Assembly: GCA_050250895.1 (NCBI GenBank)
Contig: JBFWNU010000001.1
Coordinates: forward strand, 616,008-680,007
Source of the DNA: Vulcanimicrobiota bacterium
GTDB taxonomy: Bacteria > Vulcanimicrobiota > Xenobia > Xenobiales > JADMJV01
DNA: 64,000 nt
Direction: 5' to 3'
How positions within the stretch are numbered: the first letter of the stretch is position 1; each line of letters starts with the position of its first letter. Below the pieces are notes generated by a model. It ran no database searches. It worked only from the letters and a program-made list of their open reading frames with translations, and had not been told where the DNA came from. Position numbers and translations under genes: made by a program. Positions 42,460 to 48,977 of the stretch are shown here, piece after piece.

Positions 42460-43439
42460 GTCTGCTGGCCTTGTTGGCCTGCTCGTCCCCACCCCATCCC
42501 ACGCCGTCAGCGGTGGCCACCACGCCCGTCAGGCCCGACCCTACTCCCCAGGCCACCCTGGCCCCGCCCGGCTTGAAGGTCGAGGTTCAGGGACCAGGGC
42601 AGGTCCTGGTCGAGTATTCCGGGGGACGTCTGGTCCGCAGCCTGACGCCGCTCGACTTTCCCAATCCACCCGCCACCGAACTCGAAGGCCCCAGCCCCTA
42701 TCTCGACCGGGAGGTCGCCTCGGGGGTGACCTATCAATATTCGCTCATCGACGGCGACCGGGTGCTCGAGAGTAGTCAGGTCCAGGTCCCGGCCACGTCC
42801 CTTCCGGCCTTGACCCACCCCCGGCTGGTGGTCGACAAAATCCACTACACGCTCTCGGTCTTCGACGGTCCCCAGCGGGTCAAACGCTATCCCTTCGTCA
42901 TGGGCGGAAAACCCCGCCAGCGCAAGCTCTGTCGCGACAATGCCTCCACGCCCGAGGGCATCTACACCATCTACAATCTGCAGCCTCAGGCCACCTTCTA
43001 TCGGGCCTACGACATCGACTATCCCAACCGGATCGACCACTTCCGTTACGGCTTTGCTCGGCGACACCTCGGCCTGGACGACCCCGGCATCGGTGGCGAG
43101 ATCCAGATCCACGGCTGTGGCCTCAACGGCAACTGGACGGCCGGCTGTATGGCCCTGCGCAACGCCGATATGGACGAGTTGTTCGCTCAGCCAGCTCTGG
43201 CCGCCGGCACCAGAGTCTGGATTACAGGCCACGAACTATCGCTGGCCGATCTCGAGGGCCTTTCCCAGGAGCAAAATCCCCAGCTGGTGCGCCAGCTGCA
43301 GAAAAAACTCGGACTCGAGCCCGACGGCCAGATGGGCCGGGCCACCCGCGAGGCCCTGGGACTCTATCAAAAGAAAGAGGGCTGGCCGGTCACGTGTCAG
43401 CTCGACCGCCGCAGCGCCGAGCGCTTGCTCAACCCCTAG
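42435..43439 (+). CDS. L,D-transpeptidase (YkuD) lipoprotein with C-terminal PG-binding domain
   Basis: Lipobox LLAC; VDK, TPEG.Y, IQIHG...WTAGC, LQKKLGLEPDGQMG. Confidence 0.85.
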   Translation: MFRYLVQLSLLALLACSSPPHPTPSAVATTPVRPDPTPQATLAPPGLKVEVQGPGQVLVEYSGGRLVRSLTPLDFPNPPATELEGPSPYLDREVASGVTYQYSLIDGDRVLESSQVQVPATSLPALTHPRLVVDKIHYTLSVFDGPQRVKRYPFVMGGKPRQRKLCRDNASTPEGIYTIYNLQPQATFYRAYDIDYPNRIDHFRYGFARRHLGLDDPGIGGEIQIHGCGLNGNWTAGCMALRNADMDELFAQPALAAGTRVWITGHELSLADLEGLSQEQNPQLVRQLQKKLGLEPDGQMGRATREALGLYQKKEGWPVTCQLDRRSAERLLNP

Positions 43440-44686
43440 ACCGTAACGTCCCAGCGCACCAGCTCGTGGTCGCTGCCCCCACCCTCGACCCTGTGCCGTC
43501 CCGAGGCCTGACTGCCGTGGCTGGTGTAAATCCGGTCGATCGAGTTGTCCGCATCGGGGTCGCTCCATCCCAGCGAGTCGGCTGAAGGATAGTGATGAAC
43601 GGGATTGTCCGGCAGCAGACCGCGCCAGCGAAAGTCGAGGTACCTTCCACCCGCCTTCGAATTGAAGTCACCCGCCACGATCGTGTGGTCGCCATAACCT
43701 TCGACGATATCTCCCAGGGTTTGATACTGGGTCACCCGGGCCTGTTGGTCGGCTTCGTCGCCGCCCGAGGTGAAGTGCGTACTGACGAAAGTCGCCTCTT
43801 GCCCACCGGCCTCGAAGCCCACCGCCAGAGCGGTGCGGTTCTCGTTGTCGGGGTCGTTGGCGCCGAGGTCGTGGCGACGCAGGCTGCCGGGCTCGATCTC
43901 GCCCTGGGCGTCGCGGCGCAACTGCGCCTCGGGACCCAGCAGCACGGCGTTGCCATAGGTGCCTGCGCCCGAATGGGCCAGGGACGAGCCAAAGACCACG
44001 GTGTAGTCGGTCTGCGCCCCGTCTTTTTCGATTTCGGCCGAGTAGACGGTGATGGGAGTGTCATTGCTGTCGTCAAAGGCTCGCCGGCCATTCTCGAGAT
44101 AGGGTTGACCGTGCTCGTCGTAACTCTCTTTGCTAACCACCAGGCTGGCACCGTTACTCTCATAGACGACGTGATCCGCGCCCTGGGCGACCCGCTCCAC
44201 CACCTGCTGCTCGCGGTGGTCGCCGAAGTCGGCCTCATACTGGGTGCGGTCATAGCGGACCGGGTCGTAGACGCGGTGGCCCTGCTCATCGACCACGGGT
44301 TGGCCGTGCTCGTCGAGACTGAACTTATCCACCGACTCAGCTTCGCTCCAGTTTGGCCCACTCTCGGCCCGAAAGACGTCCTTGAGGACCTCTTCATTGT
44401 AGTCCTGGCGGCCCGTGCGTTCCGCCCCCACGTCGACCTCTTGAAAAGCCACGACATCGAGACCCCCGCCGGTCACCTGCTCGGACACCTGCCGGGTAGT
44501 CTCGTCAAAGTGTTGGCGAGCCCCGGCGTTGCCGGCGCCCAGGTTGTAGGTGCCCACCTGGAGCCGGGCCGGCGGCGAGACCTCGGCCCGGTCGGCCGCA
44601 ACGGCTGCAGCGGGCCCCGGCGCCGGCTTGGGGTGTTTAGCCAGTCTGGTTTCGGCCCGGACCGGGCCAGCCTCTCGAATCAACAC
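43436..44686 (-). CDS. Endonuclease/exonuclease/phosphatase family protein with large insertion
   Basis: TYN, FQEVD, YGNAVL, STHF, AGDFN, IDRIY, SDH. Confidence 0.85.
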   Translation of the reverse strand: MLIREAGPVRAETRLAKHPKPAPGPAAAVAADRAEVSPPARLQVGTYNLGAGNAGARQHFDETTRQVSEQVTGGGLDVVAFQEVDVGAERTGRQDYNEEVLKDVFRAESGPNWSEAESVDKFSLDEHGQPVVDEQGHRVYDPVRYDRTQYEADFGDHREQQVVERVAQGADHVVYESNGASLVVSKESYDEHGQPYLENGRRAFDDSNDTPITVYSAEIEKDGAQTDYTVVFGSSLAHSGAGTYGNAVLLGPEAQLRRDAQGEIEPGSLRRHDLGANDPDNENRTALAVGFEAGGQEATFVSTHFTSGGDEADQQARVTQYQTLGDIVEGYGDHTIVAGDFNSKAGGRYLDFRWRGLLPDNPVHHYPSADSLGWSDPDADNSIDRIYTSHGSQASGRHRVEGGGSDHELVRWDVTV

Positions 44687-44857
44687 GCTTGCATTCTAAA
44701 GGCTCTGACCTGCCCAACGGCTGCCCAGATGGTGTCGACGTGAACAGCTCATTGCCGAAGCGTTAACTGGGGCGGGAAGAAGAGTGGGCGAGGGCGAAGG
44801 AATAAGATGTACGACTTGACGACGGGACTAGCCAAGTGATTCACAGGGGAGGTAGTT

Positions 44858-45886
44858 TTGAAGGTCTGCCTGGTTCTCACCCACCAATGCAATCTCGGTT
44901 GTAGCTACTGTTACGCGGGCGAAAAGTTCAAACGCACGATGAGCTACGAGTCGGGCCTCAAGAGTCTCGCTCTGGCTTTCTCGAAGGAAGGGCCTGTCGA
45001 AGTCTCGTTTTTTGGCGGCGAACCGATGATCGCCTTCGCTCAGATGGCCGCCCTCACCCGGGTGGCCCGCCGCTGGGCCGACCGCGCCGGTCGCCAACTG
45101 CGCTTCGCGGTCACCACCAATGCCACGATCCTCAACGAAAAGCACCTCAATTTCTTGCGCGACTACAACTTCTTTGTCGGCATTTCGGTGGACGGCGTCG
45201 AGGAAGAGCATGATCGCCATCGCCCCTTCGTGGGGGGACGAGGCTCCGGCGACCTGGTCTGGCGCAATCTCGAACGGGCCGCCCACTATCTCGACGATTT
45301 TCGGGTCTTGATGGTGGTCCGCCCCGACACCGTGGCCCGCCTGCCCGAAGCCATCGAGCGAATGTACCGCCTGGGCGTCTCGAAGGTTTCGCTCTTGCCC
45401 GAAACCGAAGCCGATTGGAGCGAGTCGCGCCATCTTCTCTCGGACGTCTACCAGCAACTGGCCCGTGTCTGCTACTTCTCGATGATGACCGACGAGCCCA
45501 TGTATATCAGCCCCTTCGCCGAACTGCATCCTCACCTTCGCAGCAACGGCAACGGCGGCGGTCGTGGTGGCTGCAACTTCGGCCGCGACGAGGTGGCCGT
45601 CTCGCCCGCCGGCAACTTCTACCCCTGCGCCCGTCTGGTCGGCCCCGATACTCGCCCCGAGGTGCGCATCGGCAATCTGGAGAACGGCTTTGACCTGGCC
45701 CGCATCGAAGAGCTCAACAGCTGTTCTGAGGCCAGCCTCTCCAAGTGCGGCAGCGGAGGCTGCAAGTGCCTGGCCCTGATGCCGGGCGATGTCGACTATC
45801 AGCTGGTCAACGTCAAGATGTTCACGGACGTCACCGGTGAGGCGTGCCGCGCCGCCGCAGCCTGCCTCGAAGAGGTGGCCGCGTGA
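44858..45886 (+). CDS. Radical SAM protein with SPASM/twitch-like C-terminal domain (putative peptide/protein maturase)
   Basis: CNLGCSYC, FFGGEP, TTNAT, ISVDG, GC..G...YPC, IGNL, CGSGGCKC; GGAGGT RBS. Confidence 0.9.
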   Translation: MKVCLVLTHQCNLGCSYCYAGEKFKRTMSYESGLKSLALAFSKEGPVEVSFFGGEPMIAFAQMAALTRVARRWADRAGRQLRFAVTTNATILNEKHLNFLRDYNFFVGISVDGVEEEHDRHRPFVGGRGSGDLVWRNLERAAHYLDDFRVLMVVRPDTVARLPEAIERMYRLGVSKVSLLPETEADWSESRHLLSDVYQQLARVCYFSMMTDEPMYISPFAELHPHLRSNGNGGGRGGCNFGRDEVAVSPAGNFYPCARLVGPDTRPEVRIGNLENGFDLARIEELNSCSEASLSKCGSGGCKCLALMPGDVDYQLVNVKMFTDVTGEACRAAAACLEEVAA

Positions 45887-46209
45887 GCGAAGACAAAATC
45901 AAAAGGCGCCGCTTCCTGGCTGACGTGCTATTCGCTGGCGGCGGGCTGACCGCGGCTGCTTTCCTGGCCAAGGCCGGCTTTGACCGCGACCAACCCGACC
46001 AACTGCCCGGAGCGGTGGCCGTGCCCAACGACGGCCAAACGCCGACCTGCGAAGAGACCCCGAGCTGTGCGCCCACCCCCGACGATCCCAGCCTGGGCGG
46101 CGAACCGATGCCCCCCGAGCCCCCCATGCCCGGCCAAATGGCCCTGCCCCAGCAACCGCCCGAGGTCATCCCCGATGGTGACGTAGCCGCCCCCAGGGAG
46201 TGCAAATGA
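45883..46209 (+). CDS. Putative rSAM substrate 1 (twin-arginine leader plus G-centred repeats)
   Basis: GTGA overlap with rSAM; SEDKIKRRRFLADVLFAGGGLTAAAFLAKA; LPGAVAVP, LGGEPMPP, MPGQMALP, PDGDVAAP. Confidence 0.85.
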   Translation: MSEDKIKRRRFLADVLFAGGGLTAAAFLAKAGFDRDQPDQLPGAVAVPNDGQTPTCEETPSCAPTPDDPSLGGEPMPPEPPMPGQMALPQQPPEVIPDGDVAAPRECK

Positions 46210-46559
46210 GCGACGACAAGATCAAGAGACGCCGATTTCTAGCAGATGTGCTCTTCGCTGGCGGCGGACTGACGGCAGCGGCTTTTCTGGCCAAAGCCGG
46301 CCTGGACCGTCACGAGCCCAACCCCGGCGTAGCCGGCGACATGAAAATGCCCCAACCCGCCAACACTCCGGTGGCCTCGCCCACCTGCGAAGACCCCGAG
46401 ATCGAGGGCGACGTAGCCCTGCCCGAACCCGAGCAGACCCCCTGCGAAAAGCCGCCCCTCACGCCCCAAGACGAGCCCAACGTGGCCGGCGGCATGCGCC
46501 CGCCCCAACCCCCACCCGAGGCACTGCCCGGCCGAGTCGCCGTGCCCCGTGACCAATGA
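46206..46559 (+). CDS. Putative rSAM substrate 2
   Basis: ATGA overlap; same leader; VAGDMKMP, IEGDVALP, VAGGMRPP, LPGRVAVP. Confidence 0.85.
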   Translation: MSDDKIKRRRFLADVLFAGGGLTAAAFLAKAGLDRHEPNPGVAGDMKMPQPANTPVASPTCEDPEIEGDVALPEPEQTPCEKPPLTPQDEPNVAGGMRPPQPPPEALPGRVAVPRDQ

Positions 46560-46891
46560 TGAGCAAAGGCAAGACTCGGCGCCGACGCTTTCTCGCCGAT
46601 CTGCTCTTTGCCGGCGGGACACTCACTGCCGTGGCCTTTCTGGCCAAGGTCGGGGGGACCGTCGACCCACCCACCCCGGCGGGACTGGCCGCAAAGCCCG
46701 CCGCCTCGCCGTCCTTCCAAGAGTGCCCCGAGACTCCAGCCCTGGAGACGCGGGAACCCATCCCGGGCCCCGGAGACCAGGGCACCATCAAAGTTGGCGG
46801 CATGGTCAAGCTGCCGCGCCAAACTGGCAAGGAAGTTCTTCCTGCTAATATCACAAGCAAGCCGGTGACAAGAAGCTATGAGCGAAGATAA
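46556..46891 (+). CDS. Putative rSAM substrate 3 (divergent)
   Basis: ATGA overlap; KTRRRRFLADLLFAGGTLTAVAFLAKV; ECPETP, VGGMVKLP. Confidence 0.8.
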   Translation: MMSKGKTRRRRFLADLLFAGGTLTAVAFLAKVGGTVDPPTPAGLAAKPAASPSFQECPETPALETREPIPGPGDQGTIKVGGMVKLPRQTGKEVLPANITSKPVTRSYERR

Positions 46892-47207
46892 GATCAAAAG
46901 GCGCAGATTTCTGGCCGACGTGCTGTTCGCGGGCGGTGGCCTGACGGCCGCAGCCTTTCTGGCCAAAGCCCAGTTCGGCCAACCCGACCCGCCCCTCGTC
47001 AAGCCATCGCCGCGGGAAACCCCCACTTGCGCCCACCCCCCCGAGCCAGACCTCCGGGTCAAAGGCGAGGTGGCGCCACCCCAACCAGCACCGCCAACCC
47101 AGCCCGAGCCGGCTGTGCCCGGCAAAATGAAAGCCCCCAACCCCAGGCCGATCGAGCTTCAGCTCGAGGGCGAGGTAGAGATGCCTGAACCGAGGGAGTG
47201 CAAATGA
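46878..47207 (+). CDS. Putative rSAM substrate 4
   Basis: Same leader; VKGEVAPP, VPGKMKAP, LEGEVEMP; ends PRECK. Confidence 0.85.
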   Translation: MSEDKIKRRRFLADVLFAGGGLTAAAFLAKAQFGQPDPPLVKPSPRETPTCAHPPEPDLRVKGEVAPPQPAPPTQPEPAVPGKMKAPNPRPIELQLEGEVEMPEPRECK

Positions 47208-47527
47208 GCGAAGACAAGATCAAACGCCGCCGATTTCTAGCCGACATCCTGTTCGCCGGTGGAGGCCTGACGGCCGCGGCCTTTCTGGCCAAAGCCCAGT
47301 TCGGCCAAACCTCGCCGACCGACGTGCCTCAAACCTGCGAGACTCCCACCAGCTGCCAATCGCCCGACATCGACGGCAACGCCGTCCCCCCCGTCGAACC
47401 CCACCCCGCCGGCGCCGTCGCGCCCCCTCAGCCCGAAGAGCCCCAACTCGAGGGCAAGGTCGCCCAACCCGTCCAGATCAAAGGCGACGTGGCCGTGCCC
47501 GATGACAGGCTAGAGGGACGACGGTAG
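47204..47527 (+). CDS. Putative rSAM substrate 5
   Basis: ATGA overlap; same leader; IDGNAVPP, PAGAVAPP, LEGKVAQP, IKGDVAVP. Confidence 0.85.
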   Translation: MSEDKIKRRRFLADILFAGGGLTAAAFLAKAQFGQTSPTDVPQTCETPTSCQSPDIDGNAVPPVEPHPAGAVAPPQPEEPQLEGKVAQPVQIKGDVAVPDDRLEGRR

Positions 47528-47561
47528 ACGGTAGACGGTAGACGGTAGACGGTAGACGGTA
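47520..47561 (+). repeat. Tandem heptamer (GACGGTA)x6
   Basis: Six perfect copies; the first supplies the TAG stop of substrate 5. Confidence 0.95.
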
Positions 47562-47694
47562 GAGAGCCGCATCTCGCTGCCGGCTCGCTGCCGGCTCTCT
47601 CCTGTTTCCCTGACGGCGCCCGGGCCCGCCCACTCGAAGCTGGTGAGTTCCCCTCTCGACGGCGAAGCCGCCCAGAATGACGACGCGAAGCGTC

Positions 47695-47996
47695 GAGTAC
47701 CTCAAAACTCGAGGTGAGCCCAGCGAACCTCGCTCCCCTCTCGCTGGCGAGCGCAAGCGAAGCCAGCGCTCCCCTCTCCGGGCGCAGCCCGGCTCCTCTC
47801 TCGCGAGCAAAGCGAGCGCTCCCTTCTCGACGGCGAAGCCGTCGCGAGTACCTCAAAACTCGAGGTGAGCCCAGCGAACCTCGCTCCCTTCTCGCTGGCG
47901 AGCGCAAGCGAAGCCAGCGCTCCCCTCTCCGGGCGCAGCCCGGCTCCTCTCTCGCGAGCAAAGCGAGCGCTCCCTTCTCGACGGCGAAGCCGTCGC
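47695..47996. repeat. 151-bp direct tandem duplication of a multi-hairpin element
   Basis: 47695-47845 vs 47846-47996, one mismatch seen; hairpins separated by GCTCCCCTCTC-type spacers. Confidence 0.9.
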
Positions 47997-47999
47997 CCG

Positions 48000-48977
48000 C
48001 TAGGCGGTGGCTACGAAGGAGGGAGCGCGGCCGAAGCTCTTGCGATAGCGATCGGCGAACTCATCACGGGTGTAGCTGTGATTCTGGGTGCCGTACTTCT
48101 CCACCACGTAAGCGGCGGCCACGCTGCCCATGCGTCCACATTCGGCCAACTCGCAGCCCGCGACCAGGCCAGCTACGAATCCGCCGCGATAGGCGTCGCC
48201 CGCGCCGGTGGGGTCGACCGCTTTCGAGATCACGCAGGGCGGGACCTCGATGGCCGTCTCGCCTTTGCGCAGAATGCGACTGCCTTTCTCGCCCAGGGTC
48301 ACCACCAGCATGTCCATCTGGTCGAGCAATTGCTCGGTGGTGCGACCGGTCTTCTCTTGGAAGACCGAGAACTCGTAGTCGTTGAGAATCATAGCGTGGG
48401 CGCCCAGAGCGCCTTCGAGCAAGGGTCCGCCCTCCATGGCCGTGACCTGGAAGGAGGGGTCGTAAATCAGCGGGATGCCGGCCTCTTTCGCCTCGCGGCA
48501 GTGACGCAGCATGGCTTCAGGATCGTCAGGGGCGACGATCAGCAGGGCCGGCGAGGGGCCGGCCGAGGCTTTGACACTGATGTTCTTGGAGTGGGGCATG
48601 GCGCCCACATAGAAGCCGGTAATCTGGTTGTTGGCCCGGTCGGTGGTGATGTAGCAGGTGGCCGTGATCTCGTCTTCGACTCGCAGGATGGCCGAGGTGT
48701 CGACCCCGTTCTTCTCGAGGAAGTCGGCGTAGGTGTCGAAATCGTTGCCGGCCGCCGCGATAATGCGGGGGTGGCGACCCAGAAGGGACAGGGTGTAGGC
48801 GATGTTGGCTGCACAGCCGCCCCGCTGCTTGGTGACCTTGTCCACCAGAAAAGAGATGTTGATCATGTGCAGCTTCTCGGGCAGGATGTGCTCCTTGAAG
48901 TAGCCGGGAAAGGACATGATGTTGTCAAAGGCCAGCGAGCCTGCTACCAGGATCTGGCCCTCCATCGTTTTGGCCAC
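48000..48977 (-). CDS. PfkB-family nucleoside/carbohydrate kinase (adenosine kinase-like)
   Basis: GSLAFD, GGCAANIA, DPSFQ, NDYE, VDPTGAGDAYRGG; AGGAGG before GTG 48977. Confidence 0.9.
   Translation of the reverse strand: MAKTMEGQILVAGSLAFDNIMSFPGYFKEHILPEKLHMINISFLVDKVTKQRGGCAANIAYTLSLLGRHPRIIAAAGNDFDTYADFLEKNGVDTSAILRVEDEITATCYITTDRANNQITGFYVGAMPHSKNISVKASAGPSPALLIVAPDDPEAMLRHCREAKEAGIPLIYDPSFQVTAMEGGPLLEGALGAHAMILNDYEFSVFQEKTGRTTEQLLDQMDMLVVTLGEKGSRILRKGETAIEVPPCVISKAVDPTGAGDAYRGGFVAGLVAGCELAECGRMGSVAAAYVVEKYGTQNHSYTRDEFADRYRKSFGRAPSFVATA

Follow-up and report, generated by a model that had tools for sequence, protein, structure and literature searches.

A radical SAM enzyme with five paralogous precursors in a Vulcanimicrobiota genome, and a leader that may serve both enzyme docking and twin-arginine export

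A cassette of six overlapping genes, coding for a radical S-adenosylmethionine (SAM) enzyme and five paralogous small proteins, was analyzed in a 64,000-nucleotide stretch of contig JBFWNU010000001.1 from a Vulcanimicrobiota bacterium (assembly GCA_050250895.1, positions 616,008 to 680,007 of the forward strand). This whole stretch is called the window, and positions are given in its coordinates unless a contig or locus is named. The five proteins share an N-terminal segment, the leader. The best-supported reading of the data is that this leader doubles as a docking segment for the enzyme, acting as maturase, and as a signal for the twin-arginine translocation (Tat) pathway. Judged from a complex model, the layout of the leader and comparative data, this reading has about an even chance of being correct. 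Together, the enzyme and its precursors form a precursor/maturase family that has not been described before and belongs to one class of the Vulcanimicrobiota. The six genes are listed below; RRE stands for the recognition element of peptides that are synthesized by ribosomes and modified after translation (RiPPs).

Radical SAM enzyme: 44858..45886, plus strand, 342 aa, TTG start, CteB/PapB-like core without RRE.
Precursor 1: 45883..46209, plus strand, 108 aa, GTG start overlapping the enzyme TGA, leader codons 45883-45975.
Precursor 2: 46206..46559, plus strand, 117 aa, ATGA overlap with precursor 1, leader 46206-46298.
Precursor 3: 46556..46891, plus strand, 111 aa, ATGA overlap, most diverged copy with AKV for AKA, leader 46556-46651.
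Precursor 4: 46878..47207, plus strand, 109 aa, start 14 nt inside precursor 3, leader 46878-46970.
Precursor 5: 47204..47527, plus strand, 107 aa, ATGA overlap, leader 47204-47296.

The cassette would be a minimal RiPP-like system in which a single radical SAM maturase without RRE serves five precursors that are paralogues. Each of them would consist of an N-terminal amphipathic helix of about 31 residues (n-region, RRxFLADxLFxGG, Ala-rich tail, K/R, AxA) and a Pro-rich body. In the proposed scheme, the leader helix would dock on the enzyme in the cytoplasm, with its twin arginines modelled toward E167/E213, and the enzyme would then modify the body, most likely by forming a thioether from the single Cys. 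The layout of the leader suggests two further steps: the Tat pathway would take the released precursor via the same RRxFL segment, and signal peptidase I would cut after AxA, so that the Pro-rich peptide stays behind in the envelope. A dedicated protease and transporter would thereby give way to the general machinery for export and cleavage. In a more specific form of this scheme, which is possible but doubtful, the 13-residue block RRxFLADxLFxGG would be read twice, by the maturase first, which would hold the twin arginines and one side of the helix, and by the Tat translocase next; the maturase would mask the Tat motif until modification, like an export-proofreading chaperone of its own, and signal peptidase I would finish the process.

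First, the enzyme was compared with domain and family models. It belongs to the Pfam family Radical_SAM (PF04055), with 68.5 bits against a cut-off of 29.5, and its score against SPASM (PF13186) was 15.2 bits, under the cut-off of 21.5 for that domain. The best NCBIfam match was the PapB family (NF047865, 186.6 bits, E 6.8e-55), at a score below the cut-off of 340 and so outside the family; next in rank were the nif11-peptide and Cys-rich-peptide (CcpM) maturases, QhpD (TIGR03906, 115.9 bits) and the SCIFF maturase. The CxxxCxxC cysteines C11, C15 and C18 were invariant in 62 homologues, as were C239, C257, C302 and C304 in the C-terminal part, where C297 was nearly so. A full SPASM domain carries a seven-Cys motif for two auxiliary clusters. 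By its predicted fold, the C-terminal part of the enzyme is a reduced SPASM/twitch-like domain, which still matches the C-terminal part of CteB and anSME. The AlphaFold2 model of the enzyme had a predicted local distance difference test (pLDDT) value of 92.2, and the best structures found by Foldseek were CteB (query TM-score, TMq, 0.78), anSME (0.75) and ChlB (0.70). The profile of the 62 homologues aligned with CteB (E 9e-42) over CteB residues 99-399, past the N-terminal domain of CteB. The PqqD/RRE model (PF05402) gave 21 matches genome-wide and none within the window. Thus the enzyme is a CteB/PapB-like radical SAM core without RRE, in agreement with an earlier sequence-only reading of this DNA, which had described a radical SAM enzyme that lacks an N-terminal RRE and whose CxxxCxxC starts at residue 11.

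The distribution of the enzyme and its association with the precursors were also investigated. A sample of 401 genomes of the phylum contained the enzyme in 21 cases, with strong matches solely in the class of the window; by family, it was present in 12/15 genomes of f1, 3/5 of f3, 1/3 of f4, 1/1 of f5 and 0/297 of the largest family. Loci (numbered with L) were drawn from species-representative genomes; L001-L012 and L026-L036 are not independent, because they are largely the same genomes shown twice. A locus was assessable when its enzyme was at least 41% identical and the downstream flank was complete, which gave 19 loci including the window, and five further loci that reach contig edges were left out of the count. 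One to seven leader-bearing open reading frames (ORFs) lay directly 3' of the enzyme in 16 of the 19 assessable loci. The other three (L039, L046 and L047, in genomes G096 and G110) carried enzymes of a second clade, 43-45% identical, and no adjoining leader-bearing ORF. At L046 the gene after the enzyme is convergent, and the genus of these loci, g3, also has clade-2 loci with a precursor. The largest array, at L031/L009 in genome G054, has seven tandem leader-bearing ORFs after one enzyme (six in the shorter locus), and two of its bodies have no Cys. An all-against-all comparison of ORFs of at least 100 aa in the window and 12 loci showed that the enzyme alone was common across lineages, and Pfam assigned unrelated functions to ten neighbouring genes. 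No conserved discrete RRE, protease or transporter/ABC (ATP-binding cassette) exporter was found beside the cassette by neighbour comparison, Pfam and the PF05402 scan. The enzyme and the precursors are the only conserved unit. The conserved leader, the variable core and the adjacency to a modifying enzyme are the features of a RiPP precursor/maturase cassette.

Next, leader codons 1-31 were compared by Nei-Gojobori counts among the five copies. The sequence-only reading had placed this feature at 45883-47296, which was correct, 47296 being the final base of codon 31 in copy 5, and the codons that it contrasted were exact (copy 1 AAA AGG CGC CGC TTC CTG GCT GAC; copy 2 AAG AGA CGC CGA TTT CTA GCA GAT). 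The leader proteins were identical at 29-30/31 positions among copies 1, 2, 4 and 5 and at 22-23/31 against copy 3, and nucleotide identity was 72-82/93 among copies 1, 2, 4 and 5 and 61-82/93 across all five. The proportions of synonymous (pS) and non-synonymous (pN) differences were 0.35-0.71 and 0.014-0.051 among copies 1, 2, 4 and 5, and 0.35-0.80 versus 0.014-0.17 across the five copies, so that synonymous sites were near saturation. The ratio of non-synonymous to synonymous rates (dN/dS) was 0.013-0.077 among copies 1, 2, 4 and 5; one counted non-synonymous change is simply the GTG start of copy 1. With the protein near-invariant and the codons divergent, these values bear out the purifying selection claimed for the leader. 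Gene conversion or recent duplication was excluded as the cause of leader identity because pS was 0.35-0.80. Past residue 31 the precursor alignment collapsed, and whole-protein identity was 42-63%.

As the control for an ordinary Tat signal, a molybdopterin-oxidoreductase-like Tat substrate was taken from the same genome, together with the corresponding proteins of five genomes that carry the cassette. Over the 13 residues from RR, the control was identical at 11, 5, 6, 8 and 8 positions in the five relatives, and its signal (13-21/28) was conserved no better than its own mature part (38-64%). The leader family in the same genomes was identical at 10-13/13 positions from RR. The leader is therefore more constrained than an ordinary Tat signal of this lineage, and the earlier claim that it is more conserved than export requires is sustained by the comparison with this genuine Tat substrate. 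It is decidedly unlikely that the segment is an export-only signal (Tat or Sec) with no part in enzyme recognition, its extra conservation reflecting lineage-specific export demands. The Tat control counts against this alternative, as do the RRE-less enzyme, the hypervariable body and the lack of any other conserved precursor part, which leave the enzyme no other handle. In its favour, modification of the bufferin BufA1 continued after removal of the signal peptide, according to the available portion of PMC11626156, and neighbours in a protein language model included Tat-signal clusters at 0.83-0.85, a lead that stays below the 0.9 mark.

The precursor family was then searched for. A word-seeded search gave 29 matches, all small proteins. 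When 1.84 billion cluster representatives were scanned in full with HMMER, 213 matched at E<=1e-3, including 112 at E<=1e-10. No Pfam or NCBIfam model covered the precursors. Representative-level statistics refer to the best 150 of the 213 HMMER matches (69-194 aa), and residue counts refer to the 135 newly listed representatives. RR, F11 and F17 were kept in 135/135, L16 in 133/135, G19 in 131/135, G20 in 130/135 and D14 in 126/135, with Asn in the remaining nine; the full pattern RRxFLADx[LM]FxGG was fitted by 108/135. The n-region was variable in length, and RR began at residue 3-30 in 134/135. Close relatives in named records were labelled Vulcanimicrobiota, Candidatus Eremiobacteraeota or Candidatus Xenobia. 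The outlying labels were three Burkholderiales and one Puniceicoccaceae, at least one of which matches a genome placed in the genus of the window. L003 and L026 carry identical precursors.

The bodies were about 75-85 residues long, proline-rich, disordered and hypervariable in sequence. In 175 bodies, Pro made up 24.7% of the residues and aromatic residues were few. There were 533 GxxxxP windows in these bodies, about three per protein, with the consensus [LVI]-x-G-[EDK]-[VM]-[AV]-x-P-x-P. Cys numbered 0, 1, 2 and 3 in 27, 112, 26 and 10 of the 175 bodies, a distribution far narrower than chance around a mean of about 1. Among the 112 single-Cys bodies, no fixed position, motif distance or strong context of the Cys was found, and Pro followed the Cys directly in 42. 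By analogy, one Cys-derived thioether is the best guess for the modification, though with somewhat less than an even chance, because the nearest relatives of the enzyme form thioethers. Alternatively, the enzyme may alter the repeated motif, for instance by epimerisation, or carry out some other chemistry.

Docking of the leader on the enzyme was examined with a complex model, for which the enzyme alignment had 62 rows and precursor residues 1-45 had 28 rows. The model placed the leader helix on the enzyme with an interface score (ipSAE) of 0.68 (runs 0.68, 0.70 and 0.62), and the best of three docking controls scored 0.00. Among 80 solved complexes, 58 attained this score mark, as did 2 of 110 mismatched pairs; the counts are approximate, because user-supplied alignments entered the model. 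The runs agreed in at least 71% of contacts, with a partner pLDDT of at least 60. In the model, one face of the leader helix (residues 1, 5-6, 8-10, 12-13, 16-17, 19, 21-25, 27-28 and 31) contacted enzyme residues 142-143, 163, 167, 170-171, 173, 200, 203-204, 207-208, 210-213, 215 and 336-340. The contacted site comprises helices 159-172 and 188-208, the 210-215 loop that comes next and the C-terminal helix. Leader residues R8-R10 touched enzyme residues 170-173 and 212-213, and the twin arginines faced E167/E213. Among 12 clade-1 enzymes, 6/21 interface residues were invariant (E167, Y170, R171, G173, S208 and T211), compared with 2/28 residues of the same helices outside the interface. The complex model thus supports leader binding to the enzyme, as far as a prediction can. 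Both the docking score and the enrichment of invariant residues in the clade-1 patch speak against an export-only signal.

The same contacts would suit a segment that serves only as a maturase-binding leader, with twin arginines that meet the acidic patch of the enzyme, a Tat likeness that is coincidental, and a product that is either kept in the cytoplasm or released by some unlinked route. We consider this very unlikely. Generic Tat models give the precursors no score and Asp14 is atypical, both as this alternative would have it. However, nearly all members show a full signal layout, their n-regions differ in length as those of signal peptides do, conservation does not extend to any dedicated protease or exporter, and the invariant F11, the consensus Tat position, lies outside the modelled contacts.

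The Tat consensus is S/T-R-R-x-F-L-K. In the precursors, R-R-x-F-L was invariant in 53/53 aligned members, and the flanks differed from the consensus, with K/R/S/N for S/T before RR and Ala for Lys after L, followed by the invariant Asp. Fifteen uncharged Gly/Ala-rich residues come after D14, A29 was present in 49/53 and K/R at position 30 in 43/53 members, and a small-x-small triplet lay 15-27 residues past the first Arg in 134/135 newly listed representatives. The layout thus has the h-region, the basic residue of the c-region and the AxA of a Tat signal. The genome encodes TatC (213.9 bits) and has three TatA/B/E matches and three signal peptidase I matches, and TatC was found in 42/44 genomes of the class, all enzyme holders among them. 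Since almost every genome of this class has Tat, the presence of TatC is compatible with the Tat reading without favouring it. In keeping with a Tat signal, the enzyme has to work in the cytoplasm, ahead of export.

Several results weigh against the dual-role leader. The counts of block invariance carry some circularity, in that the pattern FLADxLFAGG was used to retrieve the loci and the profile itself favours the block. Part of the docking pass may be memory, because the leader complex of an RRE-less relative (9gm3) is in the Protein Data Bank (PDB). The invariant F11 and D14 were not among the confident modelled contacts. Clade-2 enzymes (41-45% identical) differed or were gapped at five of the six clade-1-invariant interface positions, G173 alone being kept, and their precursors nonetheless read RRRF[LI]TDLLFxGG. 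Enzyme-less orphan paralogues and the nine representatives with Asn for Asp also keep most of the block. On the export side, Asp14 is atypical when set against the Tat consensus, neither TIGR01409 nor PF10518 matched any of the five precursors at E<=1, and the precursors were not among the 34 TIGR01409 or 25 PF10518 genome-wide matches at E<=10 (for TIGR01409, 150 of 157 first-look candidates were scored). A31, which puts AxA at the same place, was present in only 31/53 members, and no orphan of this genome has AxA, so that the layout fits an uncleaved membrane anchor equally well. As to the chemistry, Cys is absent from 27/175 bodies, and where it is present its surroundings are weakly conserved.

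Besides its single cassette enzyme and the five precursors of the cassette, the genome carries three diverged orphan copies at other sites:

G000:C6:122033-122299, minus strand, orphan paralogue.
G000:C1:3209426-3209767, plus strand, orphan paralogue.
G000:C4:263299-263445, minus strand, orphan paralogue.

All three keep RR-x-FLA[DN]L[LI]F, none has a radical SAM gene beside it, and their contexts are unrelated, with no recurrent neighbours. Members of the subfamily to which they belong have Asn/Asp at position 14, lack AxA, and carry acidic residues and [ED]GW-x-[LF]-P directly after the helix and then a Pro/Lys-rich tail. Nine family members carry the orphan-type EGWxLP motif; the orphan-type representatives are P0251, P0258, P0260, P0268, P0272, P0273, P0278, P0283 and P0284. 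Because the block persists in the orphans and in clade 2, with a different predicted interface, docking to the enzyme is not the sole constraint on it, and the clade-1 interface was ruled out as a family-wide one by the clade-2 residues at the interface positions. Retention of the block in orphans and across enzyme clades with different surfaces is what an export-only signal would also give. Judged from these sequences, export or insertion machinery is the obvious candidate for another constraint, with a membrane partner as the alternative.

The latter would fit an uncleaved signal-anchor, in which the precursors would be small membrane proteins of the bitopic type whose Pro-rich tail lies in the periplasm, the block would be kept for an intramembrane partner or self-association (Asp, Gly-Gly), and the enzyme would read the body, as anSME reads a short sulfatase motif. 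The orphans, which keep the block without an adjoining enzyme or AxA and have acidic residues right after the helix, agree with such an anchor, as do clade 2, which retains the block and not the modelled interface, the incomplete A31, the silent Tat hidden Markov models (HMMs), a helix predicted to be continuous over residues 3-32 and the rank of anSME as second-best fold match. Against it, the complex model docks the leader without the body while the controls score 0.00, the common pattern has K/R at position 30 and a small residue next to it, small-x-small triplets stand 15-27 residues past the first Arg in 134/135 representatives, and the h-region of 15 uncharged residues is short and Gly-rich. 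The anchor is rather unlikely on balance, and the dual-role leader is preferred.

These data divide the claims of the sequence-only reading. Its view of one segment serving as both maturase-binding leader and Tat signal is backed by selection, the twin-arginine layout, the RRE-less enzyme and the modelled docking, and it falls short at a working Tat signal, on which generic Tat models are silent. For the Tat signal taken alone, the twin-arginine layout was seen, TIGR01409 and PF10518 gave no match, and AxA stands at the same place in only 31/53 members. The complex modelling that it proposed did predict leader docking (0.68 vs 0.00); a family-wide interface failed on clade 2. The step from excess conservation to maturase binding is incomplete, as the block is kept in enzyme-less orphans and clade 2.

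In the cassette itself, the junctions of the six genes are GTGA after the enzyme, three ATGA overlaps and the 14-nt overlap of copies 3 and 4. All junctions overlap, and translational coupling therefore looks likely. The AlphaFold2 model of precursor 4 had a helix at residues 3-32 and coil in the remainder. A (GACGGTA) x 6.3 array at 47520-47563 overlaps the stop of precursor 5, and 3' of this gene a 151-bp unit is repeated 2.0 times at 47694-47996 with 99% identity and an inner 25-bp period. When 44300-48100 was scanned for promoters and terminators, nothing of use emerged: a single weak promoter-like site fell within precursor 3/4, and terminator-like sites numbered two, both on the minus strand, compared with 3.6 expected. 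The cassette is flanked in the window by an L,D-transpeptidase, a divergent Exo_endo_phos gene, a PfkB-type kinase-like ORF and gliding/ABC-like genes, none of which was kept beside the cassette in other loci (ORF comparison of the window and 12 loci). The Exo_endo_phos gene (43436-44686, minus strand, 33.2 bits) lies divergently just upstream of the radical SAM gene, and at the distant locus L001 an Endonuclease/Exonuclease/phosphatase-family gene (L001:6815-7486, minus strand, 58.8 bits) is likewise divergent upstream of the enzyme. Exo_endo_phos was rejected as a conserved partner, since the two genes did not cluster together and none was seen at the other examined loci.

The TIGR01409 scan of the genome also pointed to a different group of proteins. 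The best matches were internal rather than N-terminal, in paralogous ORFs of about 150-250 aa with an N-terminal domain, then [ST]RRxFLK with an h-region and AxA, and then a Cys-rich (or Thr-rich) tail. Examples are:

G000:C1:274768-275424, minus strand, internal-Tat paralogue.
G000:C1:897846-898277, plus strand, internal-Tat paralogue.
G000:C1:261707-262021, plus strand, internal-Tat paralogue.
G000:C2:518250-518510, minus strand, internal-Tat paralogue.
G000:C3:616241-616936, minus strand, internal-Tat paralogue.
G000:C2:781212-781952, minus strand, internal-Tat paralogue.
G000:C11:43088-43843, minus strand, internal-Tat paralogue.

In at least four of these paralogues, PF05402 (PqqD/RRE) matched just upstream of the Tat-like segment (45.4, 38.1, 28.3 and 24.3 bits), and one Cys-rich paralogue gave no family in Pfam. 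From their sequences, each would be a single polypeptide in which an RRE-like domain and an export-like segment are joined to a Cys-rich core. In addition, a 174-aa ORF at G000:C7:401401-401922 (plus strand) has an N-terminal MNRRDFTK Tat-type signal (21.2 bits, TIGR01409) with AQASEGW, followed by an extended series of six-residue repeats (type GKDGC[EK]).

RiPP pathways normally need a leader-recognition domain, a leader protease and an exporter, the last two of which are replaced by Sec/SPII (signal peptidase II) in bufferins and lipoprotein-type RiPPs. If the dual-role leader is correct, a two-gene unit of enzyme and tagged peptide would be enough to make, check and export a modified peptide. 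In the doubtful form of the scheme in which the block is read twice, it would be the first Tat-routed RiPP class, and the second reader would explain why the block is retained despite a changed enzyme surface. Full-text literature searches, judged by titles and abstract openings, returned no description of a twin-arginine leader on a RiPP precursor. Genome mining would gain signal-peptide precursors that are usually discarded as secreted proteins, the system could be used in engineering periplasmic display of cross-linked peptides, and a competition or hand-over between the maturase and the Tat receptor over one motif would be directly testable.

Compared with known systems, the best relatives in sequence and fold are CteB (SCIFF maturase, PDB 5wgg/5why) and the PapB ranthipeptide maturases, whose chemistry is Cys thioether formation. 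In contrast to CteB, the cassette enzyme has no counterpart of the first ~98 CteB residues. It has five conserved C-terminal Cys against the seven of a full SPASM domain, and its PapB score of 186.6 is far below the cut-off of 340. PapB-family substrates have Cys-X3-Asp/Glu repeats, whereas the bodies here usually have one Cys (112/175) in a weak context and no Cys-rich core.

TorD, DmsD and NapD are cytoplasmic Tat proofreading chaperones that bind the twin-arginine signal of their own substrate until maturation is complete. They are dedicated chaperones for cofactor enzymes, whereas here the enzyme that modifies the substrate would also do the binding, and a disordered peptide would be that substrate. 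The triceptide cyclophane synthase ChlB was solved with its precursor leader (PDB 9gm3), as given in a reference entry of PMC12912966. It is a radical SAM enzyme of about 375 aa with CxxxCxxC near the N-terminus (aligned 15-162), it binds its leader directly, and it is a precedent for RRE-independent recognition. However, the fold match (TMq 0.70) came at 17-18% identity, and ChlB substrates carry aromatic cyclophane motifs, unlike the aromatic-poor bodies here. Signal-peptide character is not known for ChlA.

In the Qhp system of quinohemoprotein amine dehydrogenase, QhpC is cross-linked by QhpD via its leader, then cut by QhpE and exported by QhpF, as outlined in the accessible part of PMC7876137, and QhpD engages the leader with an RRE, according to the excerpt of PMC13692751. 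The cassette enzyme is related to QhpD (TIGR03906), which, as those texts have it, cross-links a small periplasm-bound polypeptide in the cytoplasm and holds a 28-residue N-terminal leader. Unlike in that system, as far as it is described there, an RRE, a dedicated protease and an ABC exporter are neither present nor conserved at the cassette.

Bufferins consist of BufA, which has a Sec signal peptide, with the MNIO BufB (an oxidative enzyme dependent on multinuclear non-heme iron) and its partner BufC; the BufA1 signal peptide was dispensable for modification in the text available of PMC11626156. A 2025 survey calls signal peptides of the bufferin type unusual and has 0 occurrences of "Tat" or "twin-arginine" (PMC12452194), and DybA-type RiPPs take a lipoprotein route, by the part of PMC13056109 at hand. 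As these sources portray them, bufferins and DybA resemble the scheme proposed for this cassette in using a general-secretion-type signal instead of a classical leader, with cytoplasmic modification and housekeeping export and cleavage, and also in their long products (60-85 residues) and clusters without a dedicated protease or exporter. By the same accounts, however, their signals are Sec or SPII and their enzyme is an MNIO with a partner, whereas the cassette described here has a twin-arginine-like signal and a partnerless radical SAM enzyme, on which the signal segment itself is modelled to dock.

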